Virus record (IMG/VR): IMGVR_UViG_3300033075_000275
Location: 1-64,000 of that record
Source of the DNA: a virus
Taxonomy: Duplodnaviria > Caudoviricetes
Strand: one strand, 5' to 3'
DNA length: 64,000 bases
Numbering within the stretch: position 1 is the first letter of the stretch; every line of letters begins with the position of its first letter. Positions 1,992-62,835 of this stretch are shown here, in pieces. The position numbers and the translations under genes were made by a program. Under the pieces are notes generated by a model. The model had not been told where the DNA came from. It was given only the letters and a program-made list of their open reading frames with translations, and made no database searches.

Positions 1992-2391
1992 TTAATTCTT
2001 CTCCTTCTATATGTAAATTACACTCTACAGACGAACACTCTATTACTCTGTTCCTGTCAAGGGAATAGACAGTAAAGACATCTGGACTTACGATATGTCT
2101 ACGCTTGTTGTCTGATATCAAGTATATTTTACCACTAGATATGTCTTGAATCAAAGTACCGTCTCTGAAACCTAGAGTGCCACCCTGTTTGATCCCGCTC
2201 AAACTTGACTCCCAGGCGACCACCACATCAACCCGCCAAGATTGTAGCACGCGATCACTGGCAAACTTATATCGCTTGCCATTTTTGATGTACCAAGTAT
2301 TTTTCTCTGTACGGACAACCATGCCGCCCGGCCATGCCAGCGGCTCAGCGCGAAGCGGTTGTTCTTCTATTACTTTCTTTTTCTTAAACAT
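1981..2391 (-). CDS. conserved-looking phage hypothetical protein
   Basis: Likely start MFKKKK at 2391; two internal similar units (..KRYKFASDRVLQSW / ..KRRHIVSPDVFTVY). Confidence 0.6.
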   Translation of the reverse strand: MFKKKKVIEEQPLRAEPLAWPGGMVVRTEKNTWYIKNGKRYKFASDRVLQSWRVDVVVAWESSLSGIKQGGTLGFRDGTLIQDISSGKIYLISDNKRRHIVSPDVFTVYSLDRNRVIECSSVECNLHIEGEELSAV

Positions 2392-2446
2392 AGTATCTTC
2401 TACTAGTATATATATTCTTATAGTATAAGAACATAGGGTAGCATCC

Positions 2447-2830
2447 TCACTGGTACTTGTCAAACCTCTCTAATAGATATGATCCGCCAGCCCCGACTGT
2501 CCAGGCAATAGAGGCAAAAAAACCGAACACCAGCGGGCCGCTTTCAATAGTGATAAATATGGTTCTACCGAACCAGACACACGCAGCGGTAAAAAATGCC
2601 CATGCCATGAATCGGTTAGAACGTCGCCACCAGGCCCACCAAAACATAAACGTAATAACCAGAGCAGTCCATCCAATTAGCAACTGTGCTACAATGTTCT
2701 GCACAATCCCGTCCCGAGTGATGATGTTTCCGACGAACAGCCCGAACGTCGCTATCGACACGGCCAGTGCGAATGGCCGGGCCTTGCGTCCAAATATTGA
2801 AAACGGTAGTTCTCGATTTCTACTGCCCAC
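2447..2830 (-). CDS. four-TM membrane protein, holin candidate
   Basis: Four hydrophobic segments in 127 aa; leaderless extended -10 promoter at 2837-2845. Confidence 0.55.
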   Translation of the reverse strand: MGSRNRELPFSIFGRKARPFALAVSIATFGLFVGNIITRDGIVQNIVAQLLIGWTALVITFMFWWAWWRRSNRFMAWAFFTAACVWFGRTIFITIESGPLVFGFFASIAWTVGAGGSYLLERFDKYQ

Positions 2831-2850
2831 TTGCTAATTATACCACTGTT

Positions 2851-3216
2851 TCAACAATATCTTGGATTCCATTTTGTTACTGTCCAATAATTATTTCCAC
2901 CAAGCCATACCTCAATAGTAAGCGAATGGCGTCCTCTATCTAACCTTGTATCTATACCACCATACAATGTTTTTCCAGGTCGTACCCACATCGGGAACAT
3001 AACAGAATGTGATGTGCCCTTATCAAACCATAACTCAAAGGTCCTGCCACGCGGTGCCTTTGGATCAACCGCCAAGCCCGCGATGATATCGTCACAATTA
3101 ACTGTTGTCCATGATACAGTCCAATCAATTCCTCTGTTAACTTGAATTGCCTGTGCTGGTGTAGCCACAAAGAATAGCAAAATTGATGCAATAAAAATAA
3201 TAATTGTTTTTTTCAT
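2851..3216 (-). CDS. secreted protein with Sec signal peptide
   Basis: MKK + hydrophobic stretch + AQA cleavage motif; AGGAGG RBS. Confidence 0.65.
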   Translation of the reverse strand: MKKTIIIFIASILLFFVATPAQAIQVNRGIDWTVSWTTVNCDDIIAGLAVDPKAPRGRTFELWFDKGTSHSVMFPMWVRPGKTLYGGIDTRLDRGRHSLTIEVWLGGNNYWTVTKWNPRYC

Positions 3217-3224
3217 TTTTCCTC

Positions 3225-5510
3225 CTAGATTTCTGCTGTGAATTCAAAGTAGCCGGTACCCGCTTGGTACAAGCAGGCTGGGCGGTATGCCGTTGCGCCA
3301 CCGCTCGTATTGAGGTCGAACTCCATAGTCTGCGCGGTGCAGTAGTTCGTCGCAACAGACGAGATCGACGGAGTAACAGAACCGTCGTAGAGATATATTG
3401 TACCAGAGTACGTAGGTGTAGGCGCGATCCGCATTGTAACAGGAAATGGCGCTGCACACCGAGCAGCAATACTAGAAGTAGTCCAAATCCCGCGCAATGG
3501 AGGTTGGGTCCACCTTTGATAGAATCGCTGACACCTGGCTAATTCTTCCCTCTCAGAAAGACTAACACCAAGAGTTCTTGTTTGACCAATCTCCAACTTT
3601 GGATCGGCTATTGTCATCGACACGTCCGTTGCTGACACAAACTCTACTTTTAATGTTTTTGCGGTAGAGGGAATCGTTCCAACAACCTGAAAATATGTTG
3701 GGGTTGTAGTCGCAGCCACCGTTGCGGTGATAGCGTCAGTTGTAATAGAGCCATAGGCTGTATCATCAGTTGTCGAATATCTGACTCTCATTATTACATT
3801 GGAACTGGACCCGGCTGCGATCATTGCAGACAGTACACATTTTTGCCCACGAAGCCTGTAGGCATCCTCAGACTCCAATGTCTGAACAAGTGAATTTGTG
3901 ACCGGTGTGGTGGCTCCGGTTGTGGAGATAGCGTATCTTGATTGACTTCCCGTCTGGCTGCTTGCTCTAGTAACGGTAGAATTAGATGTTGAACGCCATC
4001 TATCCGCTGTCATTGTATTTGTCGCGCCGAGACTGGAAGTTCCACGCTGCCATATTGTAAATGATGCATTATGCAAAAAGTTGTATCCTTGTTGTGGATA
4101 TCCATTACCTTGATCATCTATAATACGGCCCCAAATTCTTATAGTTCTCCCCTCGCCAGAAACAGTTTGTGTGCCAACAATATTAAGACCAGAAGAAAAA
4201 ATACCAGCCCCAAATATCCCATCATTACCGTCAGTCTGATTGGCATGACCATATTTAGTATATTTACCAGACGTAATTGATGTATTAGAGTTGAAGGTCT
4301 TGTCACCAGTGATTGTTTCTGTACCCGCCAGATGTACGACGAGAGAGTCCGTGCCGTAGACGGTCGTGTCCACGCTCCATGTGTTCGCACCATTTGTCTT
4401 TAGGAAACCCGATGTTCCGGTCAATGCGGCGATATTCGTCAGGTCCGTATCTAATGGTTGATATGAATGGGTATGGCCGGTTACTTCTAATGTTCCAGAA
4501 GCGGGAAGAGTGACGGAGGTATTCCCACTTGTGGCTAGAGTTACTGTATGTGTTGATGACCCTATTGATGTGTTTCCACTTATGGTTAGTGTCTTTCCTG
4601 TATTGGCTACTCCTGTTCCACCGTATTGTCCAGCAACTACCCCGCCGTTCCATGTTCCAGATGTTACTGTGCCTACTGTCGTTGCAGCCGCCGCGTTTAC
4701 AGCCGCCGTCGTCACTATTTCTGTCTTGACGTTTGCCAGTGTTTTTGGACGAATATATCCATCTGTAGCAGTTTCTACAAAGTAATGTGTTGCTGCCGTT
4801 GCTGTATCTGCAACCCCGGCCAAACTTATTAGTGGAATGGTTGTTGTAAGACTTGCTCCGGTCATTGTCAGTGTAGCATTCGTATGACCTATACCGATTG
4901 GAGTTGCTGATGTTCCTCCGGTAGCAAGGTTGAGGGCACCAGACGTTAACCCGGTCCCAATTGTGATAGACCCAGTTGTTACCTCGGACCATAAATCAGC
5001 GGCAGTGCCAGTAGATGCAACAATATTAGTCAAAACACCGTCTGTGAGCGTGATACCAGCAAGCGTCAGGGCTCCGGTACCACGGTTTAACGCAATGCTT
5101 GTTGTACCAATAAATACCGATGAGTTACCTAGAACTGCTGACGGAATGGTACCGGATGCAATATCAGCACCAGTAAGAGCAGCCCACGTTGGAGCCGCCG
5201 CCACGCCACCCGCCGAAACCGAACGTAGAAAACGATTGCTATTTGATGTATCACCAGCGAGCCTAGTTGGTGTACCGGATGCTCCACCATATAGTACATC
5301 TCCGAGAGTCGTCATTGGGTTCGTCATCAGGCCAGTTGTCGGATGCACATGGTCTTGTCTTGATGGTATTGTGCTTGTTCCGGGTCCAGCCGATCCTAGA
5401 GCAACGGGATTAGTAGATGAAAGCAGCGCACCGGCCAAGCCGGTCGCGCTAATAGTATCTCCTGATACTATGCCATTCTTGGTACGAAATTCCTTGTTTG
5501 TTGTTGCCAT
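3225..5510 (-). CDS. tail fibre / receptor-binding protein with C-terminal carbohydrate-binding-like domain
   Basis: 761 aa Thr/Gly/Ser-rich; NFLHNASFTIWQRG start of a CBM-like jelly roll. Confidence 0.75.
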   Translation of the reverse strand: MATTNKEFRTKNGIVSGDTISATGLAGALLSSTNPVALGSAGPGTSTIPSRQDHVHPTTGLMTNPMTTLGDVLYGGASGTPTRLAGDTSNSNRFLRSVSAGGVAAAPTWAALTGADIASGTIPSAVLGNSSVFIGTTSIALNRGTGALTLAGITLTDGVLTNIVASTGTAADLWSEVTTGSITIGTGLTSGALNLATGGTSATPIGIGHTNATLTMTGASLTTTIPLISLAGVADTATAATHYFVETATDGYIRPKTLANVKTEIVTTAAVNAAAATTVGTVTSGTWNGGVVAGQYGGTGVANTGKTLTISGNTSIGSSTHTVTLATSGNTSVTLPASGTLEVTGHTHSYQPLDTDLTNIAALTGTSGFLKTNGANTWSVDTTVYGTDSLVVHLAGTETITGDKTFNSNTSITSGKYTKYGHANQTDGNDGIFGAGIFSSGLNIVGTQTVSGEGRTIRIWGRIIDDQGNGYPQQGYNFLHNASFTIWQRGTSSLGATNTMTADRWRSTSNSTVTRASSQTGSQSRYAISTTGATTPVTNSLVQTLESEDAYRLRGQKCVLSAMIAAGSSSNVIMRVRYSTTDDTAYGSITTDAITATVAATTTPTYFQVVGTIPSTAKTLKVEFVSATDVSMTIADPKLEIGQTRTLGVSLSEREELARCQRFYQRWTQPPLRGIWTTSSIAARCAAPFPVTMRIAPTPTYSGTIYLYDGSVTPSISSVATNYCTAQTMEFDLNTSGGATAYRPACLYQAGTGYFEFTAEI

Positions 5511-48154: not shown

Positions 48155-48360
48155 GGCCGGATAAAGAGGAAGAACTACGAGTCATAGACCAGCAGATAAA
48201 TACTGCTGAGAACAGTATTGCTGCACTACAGGCCCGTATCCTTGCGAAGAACAAGGAACTACAGCATTTCCAGCGAGAAATGTGGTCGATGATCATTGAC
48301 TACAATGAGCAGATGGGACGACTAATAGCAAGACGTAAGGGGATTCTAAATGAAGATTGA
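48151..48360 (+). CDS. coiled-coil hypothetical protein
   Basis: Heptad pattern; overlaps neighbours. Confidence 0.5.
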   Translation: MRPDKEEELRVIDQQINTAENSIAALQARILAKNKELQHFQREMWSMIIDYNEQMGRLIARRKGILNED

Positions 48361-49468
48361 TGTTCTAGACCATGGTTACGTCCGCCTTGTAGACCACCTT
48401 GGAGATGATCTTTCTATAGTTAACGCTGCTAGAGTATCTTATGACAAGGAGTCTAAGGACTTTAGCCCCGCCGACGCCCGACTCCTTGATTTTCTTATAC
48501 GTGAGGACCACACCTCGCCCTTACGTCACGCGGCCCTGACCTTTGAGGTTTACGCTCCACTGATGGTGGCGCGTCAGCACTGGAAGTATGCCGTGGCATC
48601 TACCTTTGTCGATGATCAGAATGGCTGGAACGAGAGTTGCTTACCGGCATGGCAAGAACTATGGTCTTATGGAAACCTAAGAGTAACTGTACAAGATATT
48701 CTGGATGAAAAAGCATTACCACTCAGATCAGTAAATGATGATGGTGTGGTTGTTCCAAATAGAGTAAAAAATATTTGGCCCTCCGGAAAGCAGGAAATTA
48801 TTACCATTATTGATGAGTTTGGTAATAAGATATCTTGTACCAAGAATCATAGAATAAAAACTCCTAGTGGCTGGGTGGAAGCCGGGGAACTTAAGGTTAA
48901 TAATCTAGTTGGTCTATGCAACGAGCATCACTACTTGATTCATGGAAAGCGCCCTCAGGTATTTGGATATGGAAAGGTTGTGTCTATTAATTCTGCTGGA
49001 ATTCATGAAACATATGATATTGAAATGGAACTAGAGTCTAATTTTGTGGCTGGCGGAATTGTTGTACATAATTCCCGTCGATATGTCACTGAAAATGAAG
49101 AGTTTTATGTTCCTGAGCATTTTCGGGAGGCACCACCCAATAGCAAGCAGGGAAGCGGCGGAAACCTTGGTGCGTGGGCTAATATGACATGGCAAACCCG
49201 TCTGGATGCACATATTAAAAACTCTCTGTATTTTTATGACATGGCTTTAAAAGAGGGACTGGCTCCTGAGCAGGCCAGACTATTCTTGCCAGCCTACGGT
49301 TTGTATGTACGGTACCGCTGGACCGTCAGCCTGGCCGGTGTGCTACACTTCCTAGACCAGCGCCTCGCCCACGACGCGCAGGTTGAGATACAGGCATACG
49401 CCGAGGCTGTGCGCGATCTGACCAAGACTGTATTTCCTAAGACATTGGAGGCTTGGCTTGCTAAGTGA
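48350..49468 (+). CDS. thyX: flavin-dependent thymidylate synthase ThyX (intein-containing)
   Basis: DLSIVNAARVS, HTSPLRH, ARQHWKY, WNES|SRRY, EQAR, HAQxEI-like HDAQVEI. Confidence 0.93.
   Translation: MKIDVLDHGYVRLVDHLGDDLSIVNAARVSYDKESKDFSPADARLLDFLIREDHTSPLRHAALTFEVYAPLMVARQHWKYAVASTFVDDQNGWNESCLPAWQELWSYGNLRVTVQDILDEKALPLRSVNDDGVVVPNRVKNIWPSGKQEIITIIDEFGNKISCTKNHRIKTPSGWVEAGELKVNNLVGLCNEHHYLIHGKRPQVFGYGKVVSINSAGIHETYDIEMELESNFVAGGIVVHNSRRYVTENEEFYVPEHFREAPPNSKQGSGGNLGAWANMTWQTRLDAHIKNSLYFYDMALKEGLAPEQARLFLPAYGLYVRYRWTVSLAGVLHFLDQRLAHDAQVEIQAYAEAVRDLTKTVFPKTLEAWLAK
48638..49072 (+). mobile_element. mini-intein (145 aa) in ThyX
   Basis: Starts CLPA, block B CTKNHRI, ends TYDIEM..NFVAGGIVVHN followed by Ser; too short for an endonuclease. 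Confidence 0.92.
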
Positions 49469-52279: not shown

Positions 52280-52291
52280 TGTTAGCTGAAT

Positions 52292-52454
52292 CTTAACCCT
52301 CCCTTAGCCTCGGCTTAGGGGAGGGTTTCTTAGCTTAATCTTAACCCCTTCTTAGCTTGGTCTTAGCTAAATCAACACGCCCGCAATCTTAGCTAAACCT
52401 TAACCACCCCTTAGCTTGCTCTTAACCGCGCGCCCGCCTTAGCTTAATCTTAAC
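52292..52454. repeat. CTTA(A/G)C hexamer array with 11-bp period
   Basis: 13 copies starting 52292, 52303, 52314 (CTTAGG), 52329, 52340, 52351, 52362, 52388, 52399, 52410, 52421, 52438, 52449. Confidence 0.9.
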
Positions 52455-52648
52455 CTTCTGTTTACGACATATTAAGAAAGCGCCGGAAAGTCCTGTGGCA
52501 CAGACACTTTCGAGGTCGTGAAAACCCTTGTGGCAGAGGCACTTTCGGCGTTGAGGCCCCAAAACCCTTGTGCCACAACGGAATCCGAGCATAGACGTGT
52601 ATCTATGCGTTCCCGACGCACTGTAACCTATTTAGCTCGTTCTTAACC

Positions 52649-53459: not shown

Positions 53460-53470
53460 TGCAAATTTTT

Positions 53471-53537
53471 CTTAACTAAAATTTAACTGTCTCTTAACCT
53501 GGCCTTAACCGGGCGCCCGCCTTAACCCTTTCTTAAC
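53471..53537. repeat. second 11-bp-phased CTTAAC array
   Basis: 53471, 53482 (TTTAAC), 53493, 53504, 53521, 53532. Confidence 0.85.
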
Positions 53538-53787
53538 GTTACGATAACCTTTAAGAAGCGCCTGAAAATCCCTCTGGCACAACGACTTTCGACCCTCCAA
53601 AGCCCTTGCAGCACAGGCACTTTCAGCCACGATACTGAAAATCCTTGTGGCACAGGCGTTTTCGACATATCGATCTGAATGAATATAGCTGAGCGTAATA
53701 GGCCTAAAGTCCTATCAAAGTAGGGACCTATGGGTCTATACCGTGTCGGACCCATGGTGTAGCCTAGAGGCGAGAGAGAGGGAAGAA

Positions 53788-54395: not shown

Positions 54396-54419
54396 CTGAA
54401 TCTTAACCTCGTCTTAACC

Positions 54420-54524
54420 GGGCGCCCGCGCGAGCGCGGGCTGTCAACCCCCTTACGATGTGATGTAGAACACGCTCAACTTTTCGGATATGGGCTTGTC
54501 TGTGTCGGACCATTCTGCTAGAGT
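54420..54524 (+). promoter_or_regulatory. composite repeat/promoter, copy 1
   Basis: GGGCG-CCCGCGCGAGCGCGGG-CTGTCAA..TTACGA-TGTGA-N6-ACAC..TTGTCT-17-TAGAGT. Confidence 0.85.
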
Positions 54525-54553
54525 TGTACCACGACCTAGGGAAAGGAACCATC

Positions 54554-54751
54554 ATGGATGACTACGCTGACTTCGCGGACTTCGCAGCGGAGGACTACTT
54601 CGATGACTACCCCGGCGACTTCGACGCCGAGCAGGACGACTGGTTCCCCGAGGACGACGACGCGCCCGAGCAGGACTGGCCCGAGGACGACGCGGAGCGG
54701 GACGCCTTCTACGCCGAGGCGTGGGCCGACAGTTATCCCGATTGGGGCTGA
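54554..54751 (+). CDS. extremely acidic 65-aa protein (DNA-mimic candidate)
   Basis: 27 of 65 residues D/E, one Arg, no Lys, 15 aromatics; AAAGGA RBS. Confidence 0.65.
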   Translation: MDDYADFADFAAEDYFDDYPGDFDAEQDDWFPEDDDAPEQDWPEDDAERDAFYAEAWADSYPDWG

Positions 54752-54758
54752 CCCTAGC

Positions 54759-54874
54759 CCGACTACTCTCCGTAGTCGGCGGGCGCCCGCGCGAGCGCGG
54801 GCTGTCAAGCCCTTACGATGTGATCTACCTCACCCCTGAAAACACTAGACCTAGGCAGATTTTTCCGATAGCCT
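54759..54874 (+). promoter_or_regulatory. composite repeat/promoter, copy 2
   Basis: CCGACTAC-TCTCC-GTAGTCGG; core at 54781; TAGACC-17-TAGCCT. Confidence 0.88.
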
Positions 54875-54907
54875 AGGGGCACAAGGTAAACGACCTAGGG
54901 AGTCAAG

Positions 54908-55270
54908 ATGGTTGACGTCACATTCACCGACCACGCCTACCGAAAGTTGGGTGGTGACGTCGATCTGGCCAAGCGTGTCGTGCTGGCAGCGAAGGCTCCC
55001 ACAGTGACCTACCCCAACGGTCGCTTCCCTGGCCAGGTCCGTTGCATCCGTGACGGCATGGTCGCCGTCGTCGCTGGCACTCGTATCGTGACGTTCTATG
55101 CGAATATCGTGGAGACGGACATTCGCCCGGACCAGACTGACGATGACGCCAAGGCGTATCAGGCGAAGCGTAACGCCGAGCGCGCGAAGCGCGACCGGAA
55201 GCGCCAGCAGAAGCGCGACGCTGACCGCGCTTTCACCGCTGCACAGAAGGCCGGAAAGGGGCGCAAGTGA
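54908..55270 (+). CDS. hypothetical protein, possible DUF4258/RelE-like fold with basic tail
   Basis: TFTDHAYRK..TVTYP..R..VAVV..IVTFY. Confidence 0.55.
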   Translation: MVDVTFTDHAYRKLGGDVDLAKRVVLAAKAPTVTYPNGRFPGQVRCIRDGMVAVVAGTRIVTFYANIVETDIRPDQTDDDAKAYQAKRNAERAKRDRKRQQKRDADRAFTAAQKAGKGRK

Positions 55271-55479
55271 CTACTCACGACAAGATCGTTGATCTTGCTA
55301 CTAAGATCGCGCGATACAGGCTGAATAACCCCTCCCAAAGGGCGGGGCAGGCATTCATGAATGTTCTTTCGGCAGAATATCCCGATCTGCATTCCGCAGT
55401 TTTTATCAGCGGTGTCGATCCATTCTACAATGACGGCTTGCTCTCCGCCGCTTGGGGCATTGTTTCGCAGAATATCTAA
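55267..55479 (+). CDS. hypothetical protein
   Basis: QRAGQAFMNVL....PDL...I...DPFY; GTGA overlap. Confidence 0.6.
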   Translation: MTTHDKIVDLATKIARYRLNNPSQRAGQAFMNVLSAEYPDLHSAVFISGVDPFYNDGLLSAAWGIVSQNI

Positions 55480-55489
55480 CAGCAATACC

Positions 55490-55603
55490 GCGATTACTCT
55501 CCGTAATCGCGGGCGCCCGGCCCAGGCCGGGCTGTCAAGTCCTTACGATGTGATGTATGTCACGCCTAAAAGTGTAGACAGACTGGCGCTCATGGTGTAA
55601 CCT
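55490..55603 (+). promoter_or_regulatory. composite repeat/promoter, copy 3
   Basis: GCGATTAC-TCTCC-GTAATCGC; core 55511; TGTGA-tgtatg-TCAC; TAGACA-17-TAACCT. Confidence 0.9.
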
Positions 55604-55622
55604 GACAGTAGGAGGTAAGGAA

Positions 55623-55898
55623 ATGATCTTGGGTATCGACCGAATCGAGCGCCGGGCCGCAGTGAATCTGCCCGCAACGTGCAACCTTTTCGGTGATTGT
55701 GGTCTGATTTTCAGTGTCGAGGTTTTCGTGCATTCCGTAAATGGTGACGTGTGGGAGGTAGAAATCCGCGATTTGCAGAGTGGGGTTTCGATTTACTCTC
55801 CGCCTGACAAGGAATGGAATTTGCTCGTACCGGAAACAATGGCCGAGGCCGAGCCTTACCTTTACCTCCACCTGTGGACGATTGGAATGATTGACTAA
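55623..55898 (+). CDS. hypothetical protein
   Basis: AGGAGG RBS after promoter. Confidence 0.6.
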   Translation: MILGIDRIERRAAVNLPATCNLFGDCGLIFSVEVFVHSVNGDVWEVEIRDLQSGVSIYSPPDKEWNLLVPETMAEAEPYLYLHLWTIGMID

Positions 55899-56185
55899 TG
55901 GGATACAAATTCACCGCGCATGGTAATTGGATGACCATGCACTTTGACGCGCCGCTGACAAGCGCGGGCGTTGTCAACGTTGGCGGTTACTGGTGGAATT
56001 CCCTTCGGGCCGACCCTTACCGGGCCGCTGCCAAATTCGCCAATGAGCGTACCCCATTCCGTAATGACCCTAATTGCCCTACGGCAATGGAATTCTGGGC
56101 CGGGGTTACCGATGATGACCTTGCCGAATTCGACAAGCGTAATCAGGAATTGTCTGATAATGTTGCTAAGTGGGGTTCTGAGTAA
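55898..56185 (+). CDS. hypothetical protein
   Basis: TAATG overlap. Confidence 0.6.
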   Translation: MGYKFTAHGNWMTMHFDAPLTSAGVVNVGGYWWNSLRADPYRAAAKFANERTPFRNDPNCPTAMEFWAGVTDDDLAEFDKRNQELSDNVAKWGSE

Positions 56186-56195
56186 TTCCAGGCCC

Positions 56196-56309
56196 GTGAT
56201 TACTCTCCGTAATCGCGGGCGCCCGGCCCAGGCCGGGCTGTCAAGTAGTTACGATGTGACATAGGACACCCCTGAAAATATTGACACAGAGACTCGCAGG
56301 GTGTAGTCT
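56196..56309 (+). promoter_or_regulatory. composite repeat/promoter, copy 4
   Basis: Core 56217; TGTGA-N6-ACAC; TTGACA-17-TAGTCT. Confidence 0.9.
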
Positions 56310-56315
56310 AAAGAC

Positions 56316-56480
56316 ACAACAGAACAGAGGATGACAGCAGGAGCGGGCTAGACCGAGGGATTTAGTCACCCCCATGAAAGCCCACTACTCCCCAAGGGTG
56401 GACGCCGGATTGACGATCACAACTCCCAGGGACATAGGGGAAAGTCGAACCCGCTTCTGCCGTGATCTTCTGTTCGGACA
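56316..56480 (+). ncRNA. candidate structured ncRNA (about 160 nt) closed by a ~26-bp terminal helix
   Basis: 56322-56347 pairs with 56450-56475; bounded by two promoters; no credible ORF. Confidence 0.65.
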
Positions 56481-56482
56481 AC

Positions 56483-56511
56483 TTGACAAGTCAATAGCGT
56501 GGCGATATACT
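56483..56511 (+). promoter_or_regulatory. promoter for tRNA cluster 2
   Basis: TTGACA-17-TATACT. Confidence 0.85.
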
Positions 56512-56557
56512 AGTCTCCTACCGGGGCGCATCCAAAGGGACCGGCCCGGTAGTGTAT

Positions 56558-56635
56558 GCCATGGGCGCTGGGACGCATACGAGTCTGTAAAACTTGTCTC
56601 ATATGGGTAGCAAGGTTCGATTCCTTGACATGGCA
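56558..56635 (+). tRNA. tRNA-Tyr(GTA)
   Basis: CGAGT-CTGTAAA-ACTTG; long variable arm; CAAGG-TTCGATT-CCTTG; ends approximate. Confidence 0.8.
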
Positions 56636-56639
56636 CAAA

Positions 56640-56699
56640 TCAAGGGTAATCCGGCTCGACGGCGACGGCTGTTGTGGTGTTCGAATCACCTCCCTTGAT
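56640..56699 (+). ncRNA. tRNA-like element lacking a normal anticodon arm
   Basis: TCAAGGG/CCCTTGA acceptor stem, T8-A9, GGTG-TTCGAAT-CACC T arm; only 26 nt in between. Confidence 0.55.
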
Positions 56700-56702
56700 T
56701 AT

Positions 56703-56777
56703 GGCCCCATCGTCTAATGGCTAGGATTGCGCCCTTTCAAGGCGCAGGAAGGGGATCGAAACCCCTTGGGGCTACCA
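56703..56777 (+). tRNA. tRNA-Glu(TTC)
   Basis: GCGCC-CTTTCAA-GGCGC; encoded CCA. Confidence 0.92.
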
Positions 56778-56803
56778 GATTAGGAATATGGTATACTAAT
56801 CAT

Positions 56804-57100
56804 ATGGCATATTCTGATATCGAAAAAAGAAATGAATGGTTTCGCAAACGCTATCAAGATAATCTTGAGTTTGTTCAAAACTATAAAATGAAAATCGGAT
56901 GTTCTGACTGTGGATGGAATGAGCATCACGCGGGGTTAGAATTTGATCACGTAAATCCTCATGTGCGCGGAACAGTTTCGTCACAATTAGGAAAGTCAAG
57001 AAGAGTTATACTAGAAGAAATATCTGCTTGTGAGGTAGTTTGTTCTAGGTGTCATTCACTTAGAACATGGAACAGAAGAGCCCAGATGGTTCAAGAGTAA
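56804..57100 (+). CDS. small HNH-like endonuclease inside tRNA cluster
   Basis: CSDCG..LEFDHV..EEISACEVVCSRCH; leaderless TGG-TATACT promoter at 56789-56797. Confidence 0.8.
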   Translation: MAYSDIEKRNEWFRKRYQDNLEFVQNYKMKIGCSDCGWNEHHAGLEFDHVNPHVRGTVSSQLGKSRRVILEEISACEVVCSRCHSLRTWNRRAQMVQE

Positions 57101-57129
57101 GATTTCGGGTTCGATTCCCGTTGGGACTA
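57090..57129 (+). pseudogene. 3' half of a second tRNA-Glu(TTC)
   Basis: TTC-AA-GAGTA-AGATT-TCGGG-TTCGATT-CCCGT-TGGGACT-A fits tRNA positions 34-73 exactly; no matching 5' half. Confidence 0.7.
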
Positions 57130-57238
57130 CGTAGCAAAACTATCGGCAAGGCCAGTCGGTAGAAAGGGAGGGCGCTGTAGCGAAAGCAGGCCCTAACAAA
57201 AACCGTCAATGACGGTAACAAAGCCTCCCAAATATAAT

Positions 57239-57312
57239 TCCGGTGTAGTGTAATGGTAACACAAGTGCTTCCAAACCATTTGATAGGGGTTCGATTCCTC
57301 TCACCGGGGCCA
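57239..57312 (+). tRNA. tRNA-Trp(CCA)
   Basis: AGTGC-TTCCAAA-CCATT (one C-C mismatch); G73; encoded CCA. Confidence 0.8.
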
Positions 57313-57313
57313 A

Positions 57314-57385
57314 GCCTCCATAGTGAATGGGTTATCATGCATCCCTGTCAAGGATGCGAAACGGGTCCGAGTCCCGTTGGAGGCG
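57314..57385 (+). tRNA. tRNA-Asp(GTC)
   Basis: CATCC-CTGTCAA-GGATG. Confidence 0.88.
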
Positions 57386-57391
57386 CGTTAA

Positions 57392-57462
57392 TCTCCTATA
57401 GTTCAATGGCAGAACGGATGGCTGTTAACCATCTAATCTAGGTTCGAATCCTGGTGGGAGAG
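57392..57462 (+). tRNA. tRNA-Asn(GTT)
   Basis: GATGG-CTGTTAA-CCATC; CTAGG-TTCGAAT-CCTGG. Confidence 0.92.
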
Positions 57463-57508
57463 CGGGCGAGAGATACCAGGGTTTAAACGTATTCCTCTCC
57501 ACCCCTAA

Positions 57509-57579
57509 GGGGGTATAGTATAATGGCAAAACCGCTGGCTCTTACCCAGCAGATCGGAGTTCGACTCTCCGTGCCCCTA
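57509..57579 (+). tRNA. tRNA-Lys(CTT)
   Basis: GCTGG-CTCTTAC-CCAGC; CGGAG-TTCGACT-CTCCG. Confidence 0.9.
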
Positions 57580-57581
57580 CT

Positions 57582-57692
57582 GTTACCGTGAGTGATCGCG
57601 GGCGCCCGGCCCAGGCCGGGCTGTCAAGTGTTTACGATGTGATCTAGGACACTTCTAAATATCTTGACAGATGACAACTTTTACTATAGCCT
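57582..57692 (+). promoter_or_regulatory. composite repeat/promoter, copy 5
   Basis: Core 57600; TTGACA-17-TAGCCT. Confidence 0.88.
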
Positions 57693-57698
57693 AGTTAC

Positions 57699-57968
57699 AT
57701 GAGCCGCACAGACAAGACCGACCCGTGGTGGACTCAGGGTACATGGGTTCCCGTACACGATCACTCTAGGGGAGCGTGTACTCTCCCTGCCAATCCGCCC
57801 TGTCACCACATCACCACGTCATACCGTCACGGTAAGTGCCACTGGACTAAGCGTTGGGATGAGGTCAAGTGGTCCCGTGACAAGTCGGCTGATCGTGCCG
57901 AGCGGGAATGGCTTACTCGCAAGACCCGCTATCGTCGTAACCGTTTGCAGAACGATGATTGGGATTGA
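57699..57968 (+). CDS. hypothetical Cys/His-rich phage protein, leaderless
   Basis: ATG 6 nt after -10; MSRTDKTDPW.. Confidence 0.65.
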   Translation: MSRTDKTDPWWTQGTWVPVHDHSRGACTLPANPPCHHITTSYRHGKCHWTKRWDEVKWSRDKSADRAEREWLTRKTRYRRNRLQNDDWD

Positions 57969-58078
57969 TTACTCTCAGTAATCACGGGCGCCCGGCCCAG
58001 GCCGGGCTGTCAAGTGTTTACGATGTGACTTAGATCACCTGGAAATATCTAGACCGTCACAGTGAATCGTGGTATAGT
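57966..58078 (+). promoter_or_regulatory. composite repeat/promoter, copy 6
   Basis: Core 57986; TGTGA-cttaga-TCAC; TAGACC-17-TATAGT. Confidence 0.9.
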
Positions 58079-58084
58079 CTAACT

Positions 58085-58231
58085 ATGAGTAGCCGACCGA
58101 ATCCTCGCCGGGCAAGTGAACACCAGCGTATCGTTATTGAGCGCCGTCGATCCAGCGCCGCATCCCCTCATGTCAACCGCGTCCGATATGATCGCAACCG
58201 TTCTAATAGGGAATGGAAGCGTGATGCCTGA
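58085..58231 (+). CDS. 48-aa Arg-rich protein, leaderless
   Basis: MSSRPNPRRASEHQRIVIERRRSSAASPHVNRVRYDRNRSNREWKRDA. Confidence 0.6.
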   Translation: MSSRPNPRRASEHQRIVIERRRSSAASPHVNRVRYDRNRSNREWKRDA

Positions 58232-58392
58232 CTCTATAAATCCAATGCATGAACCGCCACACGCGCACGGTATTGCTCTCAGCCCCGCCGATGTGAGGCA
58301 ACTAGAGGCAGCGCTAGACGCGCCTCCTGCCGTGATCGAATCGTTACGCAAACTTCTTGACACCCCCCCCCTCAATCTGATAGGGTACTCGT

Positions 58393-59100
58393 ATGGCACT
58401 CACCCGATCCAAGGACCGCAAGGTTACTAACGCTGTTTCGCCTAATGGAAAGACGGCAGTAATTGCTAATTCATTCGGCCTTCCTGCCGGAAAGGCATTT
58501 AGTTGCCCCGGCGCTACCCCATTCTGCGAGCGTATTTGCTACGCTGGCAAATTGGAAAAGGTTTACAAGGGTGTGCGTAATGTCCTTATGTCCAACTGGA
58601 ATCAATTGCAGAATGTCACGTTTTCGGAAATGGTCGAATTGCTCGACCGTATGATTACCGATTTCGAGGCGGAATGCGATAAGCGCGGGGCCGATAAGGC
58701 ATTCCGTATCCATTGGGATGGGGATTTCTTTAGCAACGATTACACTATCGCATGGCGCGAGGTTATCAACCTTCACCCCGATACTCATTTCTGGGTTTAC
58801 ACGCGGGTAAAGGATGCGGCAATGATGCTGCACAATGCCAACCTTTCTAACCTTTCGCTTTACTTTAGCGCCGACCGCGACAATATCTACAATGCCCGGT
58901 TGCTTTCTAGCGTCGGTATCAACGTTGCATATGTCGATGACACTTTCGCACAGGGTAAGGCAGAATTTCCGAAGGCTGCCCGGTGCCCTGAGAATAACAA
59001 GGCTATCCCCCTCATTTCCACTAAGGGTAGCGCGTGCATTGTTTGCGGCCTTTGCGTGAATGGTCGGAATGACGTGCTGTTTGCGGTGAAAAAGCGATGA
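58393..59100 (+). CDS. mycobacteriophage gp88-like protein
   Basis: RSKDRKV..NSFGLPAG..SCPGAT..C..ICYAGKLE..FRIHWDGDFFS; promoter TTGACA-18-TAGGGT at 58357-58386. Confidence 0.8.
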   Translation: MALTRSKDRKVTNAVSPNGKTAVIANSFGLPAGKAFSCPGATPFCERICYAGKLEKVYKGVRNVLMSNWNQLQNVTFSEMVELLDRMITDFEAECDKRGADKAFRIHWDGDFFSNDYTIAWREVINLHPDTHFWVYTRVKDAAMMLHNANLSNLSLYFSADRDNIYNARLLSSVGINVAYVDDTFAQGKAEFPKAARCPENNKAIPLISTKGSACIVCGLCVNGRNDVLFAVKKR

Positions 59101-59171
59101 ATAGTTTTGTCACCTTTCTAGTTATCCTGGGAATTGCATTCTTTTGGATGGTCTATTGGAAACCACGCTAA
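59097..59171 (+). CDS. 24-aa TM micropeptide ending WKPR
   Basis: ATGA overlap; MNSFVTFLVILGIAFFWMVYWKPR. Confidence 0.5.
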   Translation: MNSFVTFLVILGIAFFWMVYWKPR

Positions 59172-59179
59172 GTAACCCC

Positions 59180-59293
59180 GCCGTCACTCTCTGTGACGGC
59201 GGGCGCCCGGCCCAGGCCGGGCTGTCAACCCCTTACGATGTGACGTGGATCACCCATAAAACTATAGACTCCCGACCCCTGATCATGTATGCT
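59180..59293 (+). promoter_or_regulatory. composite repeat/promoter, copy 7
   Basis: GCCGTCAC-TCTCT-GTGACGGC; core 59201; TGTGA-cgtgga-TCAC; TAGACT-17-TATGCT. Confidence 0.9.
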
Positions 59294-59324
59294 TGCATCA
59301 TCACCTAGAGAAAGAGGTAATACA

Positions 59325-59456
59325 ATGGCTCTGTCCGTTCTCATCGCCGCCGAGGTTTGGAATCGTAAGGACGGCGCGGTTGTCAAGTCCGTCGTTCGTA
59401 CCGAGGATGGCCGATTCGTCGGCGTGACCAACCAGACGCGGGAGGTCAAGGCATGA
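59325..59456 (+). CDS. hypothetical 43-aa protein
   Basis: GAGGT RBS; MALSVLIAAEVWNRKDG.. Confidence 0.55.
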   Translation: MALSVLIAAEVWNRKDGAVVKSVVRTEDGRFVGVTNQTREVKA

Positions 59457-59668
59457 GCGAGAAGTACGCTCTTGACGTAATGCCGGGGGACATTCTCGAT
59501 CTTGACGAGCGTGGCCCCGTGCTGGTCGATTACGTTTTCCAACCTAGCGATGACTACTCCGCCGTTGTCATTAGCGGTTATGACCCCGATGGTGATGAAT
59601 TCGATGAGGAATTCGACCCCGATGACGTGCTGACCGTTCGTCATAACCTCGCCTATCTTTGGGACTGA
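59453..59668 (+). CDS. acidic hypothetical protein
   Basis: ATGA overlap. Confidence 0.55.
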   Translation: MSEKYALDVMPGDILDLDERGPVLVDYVFQPSDDYSAVVISGYDPDGDEFDEEFDPDDVLTVRHNLAYLWD

Positions 59669-59669
59669 T

Positions 59670-59858
59670 ATGCCTACCCCGTTCGAAATCCTGTTCCCCG
59701 CCGAGGCGGCAATGCGTGATATGCGTATCTGCCCGCTCTGCCAGGTTGCCATCAACCCCGGCGATTTCCGCGATGCTATTTCGCTGCGAGAGTCAGAGAT
59801 TAGCGGCATGTGCCAGACGTGCCAGGACAACTTTTTCACCGATGGAGACGAGTGGTAA
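59670..59858 (+). CDS. small Zn-finger protein
   Basis: CPLC..FRDAISLRESEISGMCQTCQD. Confidence 0.65.
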   Translation: MPTPFEILFPAEAAMRDMRICPLCQVAINPGDFRDAISLRESEISGMCQTCQDNFFTDGDEW

Positions 59859-60079
59859 TGACCATTCTGTGTGGTAAGACCCGTCCGCAAGCCGACCCGT
59901 ATGAGATTTGGGTCGATGGTGACTGGACGTGGCTGGTGCTGAAAAAGTATCAGAACGACGACCGCAAGCCTTATGCACGCTGGCTTTGTGCGGTAAAGTC
60001 CCCGTTCACCTTCGGTTCGTATGAGGTTGGCGACGTGTATGCTGCCGAGGTCATGGATTCTGCGGAGCGGGTTCTCTAA
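59858..60079 (+). CDS. hypothetical phage protein
   Basis: TAATG overlap; CGKTR..PYEIW..WTWLVLKKYQ..YARWLCAVKSP. Confidence 0.6.
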   Translation: MTILCGKTRPQADPYEIWVDGDWTWLVLKKYQNDDRKPYARWLCAVKSPFTFGSYEVGDVYAAEVMDSAERVL

Positions 60080-60252
60080 TGGATAGGCAATGGCGTCGGA
60101 CATTCTTTCTGTCCCTCGCCATTTGCTTTATCCTATTCAGTGTGTTTCGTGCCGTTCTACTGGTCTATATTGCTGAGCAGGAAAAGGTGACGGGCGAACC
60201 TAACTACAATTGTACAATTTGTACAACTGTCCCCCCTGATTACTCTCCGTAA
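60079..60252 (+). CDS. 57-aa single-TM protein
   Basis: TAATG overlap; stop lies within repeat copy 8. Confidence 0.45.
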   Translation: MDRQWRRTFFLSLAICFILFSVFRAVLLVYIAEQEKVTGEPNYNCTICTTVPPDYSP

Positions 60253-60350
60253 TCACGGGCGCCCGGCCTAGGCCGGGCTGTCAAGTCTTTTACGATATGA
60301 CATAGAGCACGCCTAAAACTATAGACTGTCACTCTGCCACATGCTATTCT
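60238..60350 (+). promoter_or_regulatory. composite repeat/promoter, copy 8
   Basis: Core 60257 with perfect CCCGGCCTAGGCCGGG; TAGACT-17-TATTCT. Confidence 0.9.
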
Positions 60351-60378
60351 TGACCTACCAACCGAGAAAGGAACCCAA

Positions 60379-60609
60379 ATGTCATCATCCCCCGGAGTGT
60401 TCATCGTCAAGGACGGTCGGCCCTTCATCGACGTTCTCACCGTTACCGAAAACATGTGCCAGTTCGCGGTGAATATGCTTCGATCCAACAACGCCCCCGT
60501 TCCCCGCGAGATGCTTGAGTTTTTCGGTGAGGCTGCGACGATGCGGGCGGAATACATCATTGTAGAGGCCGACCTCGCCATGCTCGACCCCGATACTGTG
60601 ATCGTCTGA
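60379..60609 (+). CDS. hypothetical protein
   Basis: AAAGGA RBS. Confidence 0.6.
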   Translation: MSSSPGVFIVKDGRPFIDVLTVTENMCQFAVNMLRSNNAPVPREMLEFFGEAATMRAEYIIVEADLAMLDPDTVIV

Positions 60610-60616
60610 GGAGAGC

Positions 60617-60880
60617 ATGATGACTGATATTCCCGAGGGTGTAATCGGATCATACAAGGTCACCCTTCTAGTAGATCGGAAGCCTTGGATGCTCGACCCG
60701 GCTGATTGGGATTGGGAGGCTCTGTGTGGTCCCGATACCAAGGTTGTCGATTGCCACCTCGTAGGGGTTCGACTGGATGATGATGAGTTATATGCCCGGC
60801 TGGATGAAACCCGCCAGACTTGCGGTCAGCCAGACAATTGTGGCGACTGCGACCACACTTCTGGGAATGGAAATCTGTGA
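60617..60880 (+). CDS. hypothetical protein with C-terminal Cys cluster
   Basis: GAGGAG RBS; CG..DNCGDCD. Confidence 0.55.
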   Translation: MMTDIPEGVIGSYKVTLLVDRKPWMLDPADWDWEALCGPDTKVVDCHLVGVRLDDDELYARLDETRQTCGQPDNCGDCDHTSGNGNL

Positions 60881-61371
60881 ACAGTAACAAGACTCAGATT
60901 CATCGCAAGCGTATATCACGCCCTATGCTATGGCTTGTGAATAACGTGCGAGTGTTTGAGAATGCACGTGTGCTTCATTTCGGTGAGGGCCGCGCGTTTC
61001 TCGACACCCAGGCCCTTATTGATGAGGGAGCATATGTAACTGCGTATGACCCTTATTCCCCCGCGCCTGCTCAGCGTGACGATGTTGTCATCTACAACTA
61101 CTACGACTATGTAATTGCAGTCTACGTATTTAACGCTCTGGAACCGGGAGAGCGCATTCAGGCCTACTCCGATTTCATTACCGCCAAGATGGGTGGAGTC
61201 GGATACATTGCCTTGCGTACTGACAAAATCGCCGGGGTACCCTATGAGGATGGCGTCATTACCCAAAAGTATACCTTTCAGAAGTCTTACACCCCCGAGT
61301 CAGCGGTCGAGGAATTCGGCGGCAAGGTAATTCACAAGGGTTCCGGCTTTCTCATTCTGGAGATTTCATAA
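60877..61371 (+). CDS. SAM-dependent methyltransferase-like protein resembling the phosphorothioation-associated MTase domain
   Basis: ISRP..VLHFGEGRAFLD..AYDPY..YVFNAL..ER..DGVITQKYTFQKSYT. Confidence 0.7.
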   Translation: MNSNKTQIHRKRISRPMLWLVNNVRVFENARVLHFGEGRAFLDTQALIDEGAYVTAYDPYSPAPAQRDDVVIYNYYDYVIAVYVFNALEPGERIQAYSDFITAKMGGVGYIALRTDKIAGVPYEDGVITQKYTFQKSYTPESAVEEFGGKVIHKGSGFLILEIS

Positions 61372-61390
61372 CTAACGACGATCTTATCCG

Positions 61391-61500
61391 GTCCATTCTG
61401 GACGGCGGGCGCCCGCGCCAGCGCGGGCTGTCAAGTCTTTTACGATAAGTTAAATATTTCCCCTAAAAACCTTGACATCCACCCTGGCAGCATGTAGAAT
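61391..61500 (+). promoter_or_regulatory. composite repeat/promoter, copy 9
   Basis: Core 61407 with CCCGCGC-CA-GCGCGGG; TTGACA-17-TAGAAT. Confidence 0.88.
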
Positions 61501-61506
61501 GACCCC

Positions 61507-61575
61507 ATGGACCTACTATTGATGATCTTGTTAGGTGTGACCCTCGTCATACTCGCAGTCACTTGGAAGCCCTAG
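61507..61575 (+). CDS. 22-aa TM micropeptide ending WKP, leaderless
   Basis: MDLLLMILLGVTLVILAVTWKP; ATG 6 nt after -10. Confidence 0.55.
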   Translation: MDLLLMILLGVTLVILAVTWKP

Positions 61576-61632
61576 ACATAGCCGCCCGAATCTGCTAGAC
61601 TTGCATCACAAGCCAATCAAGGAAGGAACAAC

Positions 61633-62640
61633 ATGCCTGCTGCTGTCGAAACCTCCGGTCGCCTCGCGGCCTTTGCTTCCCGTGAGGTGCCCGCGTGGCA
61701 CGCGCTGGGAACTGTCTTTGAGGGTAACCTCAACACTCAGGAAATGCTCGCTCTCGCTCACCTGAATGGATGGAACGTTCGGCTCGTCCCGTTTGAGGCT
61801 GTCCTCGACTTCGACACCTATGCCAAGCCGCAGTTTCTCGTCGTCCGCGATAACCCGTTCGGTGACGGCCAGGGCGTTCTCGGCACGGTCGGCTCCCGCT
61901 ACAATGTCGTGCAGAACGAACAACTGTTCGACTTCGGTGACCTCATCCTCGATGGTGGTGGCCGCTGGGAGACTGCCGGGTCCATCAAGGGCGGAACCCA
62001 GGTGTTCGGCTCTCTCGCCTTCGATGAAAAGACCATCACGCTCGACCCCGATGGTCGCTCTGACGAGGTAAAGACGTTCCTCCTGGTCGTGACCGGCCAC
62101 GACGGCTCATGTGCCGTTACTGCTATCGTGACTCCTGTTCGTGTCGTGTGCGCGAACACGCTGGCCGTTGCCCTCGGTGGGGCCAAGTCTAAGTTCACGA
62201 TTCGTCACACTTCCACGGTCGATGGCAAGATCGCTGCCGCTCGTAAGGCGCTCGGTGTGACCTTCGGTTACATGGACGCTTTCCAGGCAGAGGCTCAGGC
62301 CATGATCGAGAAGGAAATCACTAAGGCCACCTTCGATGACCTTGTGACCTCTCTCTACCCGATGCCCGAGAAGGACGCCAAGGGATCGGTGAAGAAGTGG
62401 ACGACCAAGATCGACCAGATCGAGGCAATTTATCTCGGTCAGGCTGACGGTCCCGACACGACCTCCGCCATTCGCGGAACGGTTTGGGGCGCGTACAATG
62501 CCCTTACCGAAAATCTGGACTGGTACGGTAAGATTCGGGCGGGTAACGTCGAATCCCTTACCCTTGGTGCTGCTGGTCTGGATATCGCTAAGGCTGCTGA
62601 GAAGGAGCGGATTCACTCCCGCGTCCTGGCTCTGCTCTGA
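61633..62640 (+). CDS. DUF932 / TIGR03299-type phage-plasmid protein
   Basis: PAWHALG..VVQNEQLFDF..WETAGSIKGG..HDGS..TPVRVVCANTL..IRHT..GTVWGAYNALTE. Confidence 0.88.
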   Translation: MPAAVETSGRLAAFASREVPAWHALGTVFEGNLNTQEMLALAHLNGWNVRLVPFEAVLDFDTYAKPQFLVVRDNPFGDGQGVLGTVGSRYNVVQNEQLFDFGDLILDGGGRWETAGSIKGGTQVFGSLAFDEKTITLDPDGRSDEVKTFLLVVTGHDGSCAVTAIVTPVRVVCANTLAVALGGAKSKFTIRHTSTVDGKIAAARKALGVTFGYMDAFQAEAQAMIEKEITKATFDDLVTSLYPMPEKDAKGSVKKWTTKIDQIEAIYLGQADGPDTTSAIRGTVWGAYNALTENLDWYGKIRAGNVESLTLGAAGLDIAKAAEKERIHSRVLALL

Positions 62641-62709
62641 CATTCCATCCTGGGCATGATGTAAAACTGCCTCCACACTTTGTACCATTCAGCATCCACA
62701 TAATGTACC

Positions 62710-62835
62710 GCGATTACTGAGAGTAATTGCGGGCGCCCGGCCTAGGCCGGGCTGTCAAGTCCTATTACGATAGATTACGAAAATCACTGAAATTCGCAGA
62801 AAATCCTTGACACGCTGGCCTGTAGGGTGTACCCT
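62710..62835 (+). promoter_or_regulatory. composite repeat/promoter, copy 10
   Basis: GCGATTAC-TGAGA-GTAATTGC; core 62731; TTGACA-17-TACCCT. Confidence 0.88.

Follow-up and report, generated by a model that had tools for sequence, protein, structure and literature searches.

A rare inverted repeat between two promoters of a Streptomyces-type phage: a possible MITE-like foldback insertion ahead of a tRNA cluster

Between the promoter of the fourth early-region cassette (P4) and the promoter of the tRNA cluster behind it lies an inverted repeat that is both real and rare. We tentatively regard it, at somewhat less than even probability, as a single-copy, MITE-like foldback insertion that is passively transcribed from P4 as a hairpin leader. 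The window analysed is the whole 64,000-nucleotide stretch, corresponding to bases 1-64000 of a 79,872-bp IMG/VR virus contig with a CheckV completeness of 63%.

With regard to the genome, the portal protein (59% amino acid identity) and the ribonucleotide reductase (62%) have their best matches in the Streptomyces BE-cluster phages, family Stanwilliamsviridae, and the contig has, as these phages do, a GC content of about 48%, numerous tRNAs and a tmRNA. The early region (54.4-62.8 kb) is partitioned by a cassette repeat of about 110 bp, present in about 10 copies across window positions 54418-62800. Each copy consists of a hairpin, a GC hairpin, a TGTGA-N6-TCAC-type box and a promoter. The -35 hexamer is found at repeat offset 87 in five of the copies, including copy 4 and those at 55488, 57577, and 57963, and the cargo of the other cassettes begins a few bases past the -10 box. 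In cassette 6, the first promoter is followed by a small gene and then by a second promoter ahead of the leaderless GP88 gene. This internal promoter (TTGACA-18-TAGGGT, window positions 58358-58395, + strand) lies within the preceding small ORF, 6 nt upstream of the GP88 ATG; GP88, like the cassette 5 and 6 genes, appears to be leaderless. The early-region cassettes resemble the gene-shuffling promoter-stem-loop cassettes of T4-type phages. The closest relative found, a 103-kb IMG/VR contig (G001) with conserved genes of 65-75% nucleotide identity, shares the cassette repeats, with a different cargo order.

Table 1. Features of cassette 4 around the inverted repeat; positions are those of the window.
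Feature	Position	Strand	Remarks
Cassette repeat copy 4: hairpin 1, GC hairpin 2, TGTGA-N6-ACAC box at 56255-56269	56194-56280	+	Repeat families D1, D2, D4
Cassette promoter P4: TTGACA, 17 nt, TAGTCT	56281-56309	+	Putative; predicted start near 56316
Direct repeat ACAAC, left copy	56316-56320	.	Or ACAA, 56316-56319, if the first base of the element is C56320
Inverted repeat, left arm, 26 nt (5' strand of the helix)	56322-56347	+	Sequence, folding, inverted-repeat scan
Interior, 102 nt; contains runs of G and C, not significantly structured by itself	56348-56449	+	Folding compared with shuffles
Inverted repeat, right arm (3' strand of the helix)	56450-56475	+	Sequence, folding, inverted-repeat scan
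Direct repeat ACAAC, right copy, immediately 5' of the next -35 box	56478-56482	.	
Second promoter, tRNA cluster: TTGACA, 17 nt, TATACT	56483-56511	+	11/12 matches
Leader hairpin immediately 5' of tRNA-Tyr	56518-56552	+	-22.1 kcal/mol, z -2.3
tRNA cluster Tyr, Glu, Trp, Asp, Asn, Lys and HNH gene (56804-57100), same cassette and strand	56554-57580	+	

The two arms of the inverted repeat form 22 Watson-Crick pairs, 2 G.U pairs and 2 mismatches over 26 positions, arranged as 11 bp, a 1x1 G-G mismatch, 2 bp, a 1x1 A-C mismatch and 11 bp. When the ends are counted with the outer C and G, 23 of 28 positions match. A preliminary description of this DNA had given the near-continuous 26-bp pairing around 102 nt, the copy 4 promoter, a new promoter at 56483 and, as the only plus-strand ORFs, a 6-codon peptide (56331-56351) and an implausible frame crossing the promoter and tRNA-Tyr (78 codons, 56374-56610). 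All of these are confirmed, and its account of the sequence feature is accurate. The element contains no credible ORF.

In a scan of the whole 79.9-kb contig for ungapped 26-nt inverted repeats with spacers of 10-300 nt, this pair of arms scored highest and was the only one with at least 21 Watson-Crick matches. Its 22 Watson-Crick pairs were reached in none of 60 block-shuffled genomes, whereas 24 pairs including G.U were reached in 5 of the 60; the significance of the repeat comes from Watson-Crick complementarity, and the RNA-specific G.U pairs contribute none. The binomial expectation for a 22/26 match in the contig is about 0.007 by our own calculation, in agreement with the shuffles. About 956 kb of other actinophage DNA yielded three inverted repeats with at least 22 of 26 matches, two of which are direct repeats of palindromes, which the foldback element is not. 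A further actinophage locus (L068, positions 1909-2250) has a genuine, non-palindromic inverted repeat of about 33 bp that surrounds about 290 bp. This may be another foldback element, and its sequence is unrelated to that of the element described here.

The whole 176-nt stretch folds with -66 kcal/mol (z -4.4) on the plus strand and -74.9 kcal/mol (z -5.0) on the minus strand, and the helix is retained in a joint fold of 325 nt. Taken by itself, the 102-nt interior folds more weakly on the plus strand than 198 of 200 shuffles (z +1.86) and at chance level on the minus strand (z -0.35). When 170-nt windows were compared across the contig after regression on GC content, the plus-strand window fell outside the top 40 of 5,314 (z about -1.9) and the minus-strand window ranked 12th. 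The term "structured RNA" used earlier is consequently too strong: it holds for the helix, but not for the interior, and the total energy is unexceptional on the plus strand. The predicted helix of 11 + 2 + 11 bp provides the approximately two turns of near-continuous double-stranded RNA expected of an RNase III substrate. The element shows no complementarity above chance to the phage genome. Two motifs were considered and not retained: on the minus strand, GGGTTCGAC, similar to a T-loop, which shares sequence with the closing helix and lacks a matching stem, and GGGTGGAC in the core, which resembles a T-box motif and on which the Rfam T-box model is silent.

It can fairly be inferred that the stretch is transcribed from P4, because P4 occupies the same register as the other cassette promoters, and in those cassettes the cargo starts soon after the -10 box. 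The helix begins about 6 nt past the predicted P4 start and stops 7 nt short of the next -35 box. No terminator-like site was found at or past the helix, where the tail reads GGACAACTTGAC, and the element lacks the combination of a GC-rich stem and a U run that characterizes an intrinsic terminator. The next cassette repeat is at 57577, with no boundary between the element and the tRNA cluster. P4 transcripts are expected to enter the tRNA cluster, because no terminator-like site follows the helix, and the earlier view of an independently expressed RNA goes further than the sequence shows. To call the element the only cargo of the cassette was also too strong, as cassette 4 holds in addition the second promoter, the leader hairpin, six called tRNAs and the HNH gene.

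The two ACAAC copies, which are absent from the preliminary description, are separated from the helix ends by 1 and 2 nt and are indicative of an inserted DNA element. In an alternative parsing, ACAA directly abuts an element running from C56320 to G56477. When a 154-nt span was placed at every position of the contig, a repeat of at least 5 nt within 2 nt of both ends occurred in 0.9% of placements, a value qualified by the fact that the repeat was looked for post hoc, after the insertion hypothesis had been formed; for a 4-nt repeat, the value was 3.5%. The ends of the element differ at the second base (CAG versus CCG). Judged from their sequence and position, the ACAAC flanks point to an insertion signature.

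We infer the following sequence of events. A foldback DNA element of about 157-158 bp, extending from 56320/56321 to 56477, with imperfect terminal inverted repeats of 26-28 bp and a non-coding 102-bp core, would have inserted into the space of about 11 bp between the P4 -10 box and the -35 box of the tRNA-cluster promoter, with ACAA or ACAAC as the target-site duplication. The predicted empty site comprises the P4 -10 box, AAAGACACAAC and TTGACAAG. Transcripts from P4 would carry the element as the 5' leader of the tRNA precursor, because it lies just past the P4 start and no termination is seen behind it. The ends of the element would then pair as a 26-bp duplex, which RNase III could probably recognize and cleave. 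Whatever its origin, an insert transcribed from P4 forms a hairpin, so this reading and those discussed below are not mutually exclusive.

Several properties favour the insertion. The inverted repeat and the direct repeat are jointly rare; the lack of structure in the interior is more in keeping with arbitrary filler flanked by transposon ends than with a compact RNA; it is Watson-Crick matches that make the repeat significant; no Rfam family is matched; and the stretch is dispensable in the lineage, because in G001 the matching repeat (87% identical to the copy 4 core) runs directly into GP88, both the element and the tRNA cluster being absent there. In insertion sequences, 22 of 26 matches between the left and right ends are ordinary. 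The terminal inverted repeats exceed the 10-15 bp minimum of MITEs (22 of 26 positions Watson-Crick), ACAAC or ACAA abutting the ends falls within the 2-10 bp of their target-site duplications, and the non-coding element of about 158 bp falls within their 50-800 bp. MITEs also occur in several copies with different flanks, and no such further copies were seen in the collections searched, where the searches detect near-identity only; we describe the element as MITE-like and not as a MITE because no second copy was found. Other points count against the insertion. No second copy and no parent insertion sequence with matching ends was found by these insensitive searches, the relatives found offer no empty site, the GC content of the element (57%) is near that of the phage early region (52-55%), the repeat was sought post hoc and the second end bases mismatch. 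In addition, an ancestor without the element would have had its two promoters at a distance of only 44 bp and with an empty gap, which is odd because cassette 6 has an intervening gene.

The closest likeness is to the Correia elements (NEMIS/CREE) and other bacterial MITEs (ERIC, RUP), which are likewise non-coding and about 100-200 bp long, end in inverted repeats of about 26 bp and are flanked by a short direct repeat. Correia elements occur just downstream of promoters, some copies immediately past them and co-transcribed, and RNase III cuts the duplex of their ends at the inverted repeats in Neisseria transcripts (PMC10969869). In contrast, Correia elements are present in more than 100 copies per genome and duplicate TA, whereas the phage element occurs once, is flanked by ACAA(C), resembles no known element in sequence and has no known transposase. 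Its host replicon is also different, being a lytic-type actinophage; MITEs are present in phage genomes but rare, at about 0.2% of the viruses surveyed (PMC11602168).

Copies and homologues of the element were sought widely. The only other occurrence is a second assembly of the same phage (L120, 100% identical). No second copy or insertion sequence with matching ends was detected in the contig, in G001, in Streptomyces BE-cluster phages or in other relatives, nor in IMG/VR (exact and two-arm patterns), JGI metagenomes, GTDB (one genome per species) or plasmids (blastn), in searches that required near-identity over 20-26 nt. A blastn search of 50,697 phage genomes at E<=10 returned no homologue, and neither did nhmmer and blastn on 80 GP88 loci. 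The same was true of a single-sequence covariance model (R1) applied to these 80 loci, G001, three BE-cluster phages, five portal relatives and four HNH loci. The homology search that had been proposed as a source of covariation thus found no homologue in the collections searched. The element is likewise absent from the tRNA clusters that contain HNH homologues in unrelated phages. For the 95-aa ORF upstream, a single relative was found (82% identity); it lies on an 833-bp contig and is followed there by a different gene.

With regard to known RNA families, the Rfam search proposed earlier, run at the gathering score and at E<=10 with the 64 kb, 1.4 kb and 201 nt as queries, returned tRNAs and noise only; even the 201-nt query at E<=10 matched no family. 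The preliminary description had compared the element with 6S, Ms1 and Y RNAs, a comparison that failed all the tests run and is not supported. Like 6S RNA and Ms1, which are RNAs of about 160-300 nt, the element has a long closing stem formed from its 5' and 3' ends, but it lacks the second long stem beyond a central bubble and consists of a single long stem with a weak 102-nt interior, not a rod; the 6S and Ms1 covariance models gave no match at E<=10. With the bacterial Y RNAs (YrlA, with Ro60/Rsr) the element shares a long terminal stem and, within a phage, a location next to tRNA genes. In contrast to them, the element has no Rfam match and no T-loop or tRNA-like module in 56316-56480 (ARAGORN and Rfam), and no Ro60/TROVE gene (PF05731), which usually adjoins a Y RNA, was found in the 79.9-kb, 63%-complete contig, while control genomes were positive. 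The contig gave no match to reverse transcriptase (PF00078), the partner gene of a retron ncRNA.

A function at the RNA level, be it as a stand-alone ncRNA or as a processing stalk or cis-acting leader, is possible overall, if doubtful. A stand-alone phage ncRNA gene transcribed from P4, in which a 26-bp stalk carries a weakly structured working loop of about 100 nt rich in purines and C runs, seems unlikely to us. The loop might serve, for example, to sequester a protein or RNAs in the manner of a decoy or sponge, and RNase III might release the RNA. The element fits exactly into a two-promoter gene slot, as does the small gene of cassette 6, since the helix reaches nearly from the P4 start to the next -35 box. 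It has no credible ORF, two of its four imperfect positions are G.U on the transcribed plus strand, and the helix persists in the 325-nt fold with a whole-element z of -4.4; an RNA gene, or a leader, would also avoid the odd ancestral state of two bare promoters 44 bp apart. However, a stand-alone ncRNA leaves the flanking direct repeat unaccounted for (0.9% null), lacks a terminator behind it and has an interior below shuffles in structure; it has no Rfam family and no homologue, hence no covariation, it is absent from G001, and the G.U evidence is non-significant. In a variant of this reading, again unlikely in our view, the element would be an undescribed kind of promoter-driven phage RNA, whose RNase III-type stalk presents or releases a deliberately unstructured loop of about 100 nt as a decoy or sponge in early infection. 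The loop is rich in GGA, Shine-Dalgarno-like motifs and C runs, and entry as a mobile RNA-gene module may account also for the flanking repeat. The cis-acting alternative, a tRNA-operon leader that evolved in place as an RNase III processing stalk or as a put-like element modifying RNA polymerase, is distinctly improbable. It would agree with the location, as the element directly follows a promoter and precedes, without an intervening terminator, a tRNA cluster rich in structure, and with a duplex long enough for RNase III, but the leader is bypassed by the second promoter directly behind it, the other phage tRNA clusters examined showed no comparable long-range stem, and the direct repeat is left unexplained. 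The RNase III stems of rRNA precursors and T7 early transcripts are similar in that a duplex of at least 20 bp flanks an RNA segment after strong promoters; these stems, however, flank a functional RNA or are compact hairpins, whereas the RNA enclosed here has no recognizable identity. The RNase III sites so far described are compact hairpins and not stems enclosing 102 unstructured nt, which speaks against such a leader. In T4, the stable RNAs species 1 and 2, to which no role is assigned, lie within the tRNA gene cluster. The element shares with them the description of a small non-tRNA RNA on common transcripts with phage tRNAs, a likeness by description only; species 1 and 2 are inside the cluster, whereas the element is located between two promoters.

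Three further readings were weighed. A functionless, immobile inverted repeat, arising by chance or as a relic of local inverted duplication or of recombination between cassettes, is improbable. Such an origin would be in line with the excess of long-range inverted repeats in actinophage DNA over shuffles (the three cases of at least 22/26 in about 956 kb) and with the unexceptional energy of the whole window for the contig. Nevertheless, two of the three are directly repeated palindromes, unlike the element, the binomial expectation is low, and the flanking repeat at 0.9% of placements is independent of the arms. Known small invertons are similar in size and repeat length, which would suit a recombinase inverting the 102-bp core between the 26-bp inverted repeats. 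Correia elements can themselves invert (PMC10969869). Inversion is very improbable here, though, as no serine recombinase/resolvase (PF00239) or tyrosine recombinase (PF00589) was matched in the 63%-complete contig and the core contains no promoter-like site. That the stretch codes for a protein, in the 78-codon frame or in a minus-strand frame, is scarcely credible: open frames are present, but the plus-strand frame traverses the promoter into tRNA-Tyr, its GAGGGA motif stands 13 nt from the ATG, and translated searches in three collections confirmed no relative. These used the stop-free frame as degenerate peptide patterns against IMG/VR, metagenomes and GTDB genomes; the sole match (L095) was spurious, being part of a coding region of an Anaerolineales MAG.

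If the element is a MITE-like insertion, it would be among the few known in a lytic-type actinophage, its ends could lead to the host and to an active transposase in it, and the leader of a phage tRNA operon would evidently tolerate a foldback. Should it instead be a genuine ncRNA, the tRNA and tmRNA tool-kit of large Streptomyces-type phages would gain a new small RNA. As an orphan sequence with no comparative support, its value is that of a lead for RNA-seq.

The surrounding DNA exhibits several further features. tRNA-Tyr(GTA), at 56554-56634 on the plus strand, is called by ARAGORN; it falls under the Rfam tRNA threshold and is seen by Rfam only as tRNA-Sec, at 26.8 bits. Between tRNA-Tyr and tRNA-Glu, window positions 56638-56700 on the plus strand encode a tRNA-like RNA (-24.4 kcal/mol, z -3.1) that neither ARAGORN nor Rfam calls. 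It has a 9-bp acceptor-like stem, a T-arm (GGTG-TTCGAAT-CACC) and a 7-bp hairpin with a 4-nt loop, thus no anticodon loop, and no D-arm; it may represent a degenerate tRNA or mimic one. The free-standing HNH endonuclease gene (plus strand) immediately follows tRNA-Glu and is itself followed, at 57101-57130, by what looks like the remnant of a T-arm, with 89% likeness to that of tRNA-Asp (57362-57380). Homologues of this HNH gene occupy tRNA clusters of unrelated phage contigs, in one case (L121) likewise right behind tRNA-Glu, which suggests homing into tRNA clusters. Another unrelated phage-like contig (L123, NCBI JACCDR010023901.1) carries at 2189-3805 a Ro60/TROVE and vWA protein beside tRNAs and an HNH homologue; Rfam detected no Y RNA there at the gathering score, and an uncalled Y-like RNA may lie nearby.

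Elsewhere in the window, two paralogous intergenic blocks lie about 1.05 kb apart (52280-52475 and 53470-53540; 52484-52575 and 53563-53664). Both contain iteron arrays of the TCTTAGCT/AATCTTAACC type and AAAACCCTTGTGGCA repeats, and they may represent a replication origin or arrays of regulator-binding sites. The ThyX thymidylate synthase gene (window positions 48350-49468, + strand) is interrupted by an intein (Pfam Thy1 and Intein_splicing). Outside the window, positions 77968-78230 of the full contig (G000, minus strand) hold a short tmRNA of 263 nt with the tag ANQSQLALAA; ARAGORN calls it, along with two tRNA-Leu genes.
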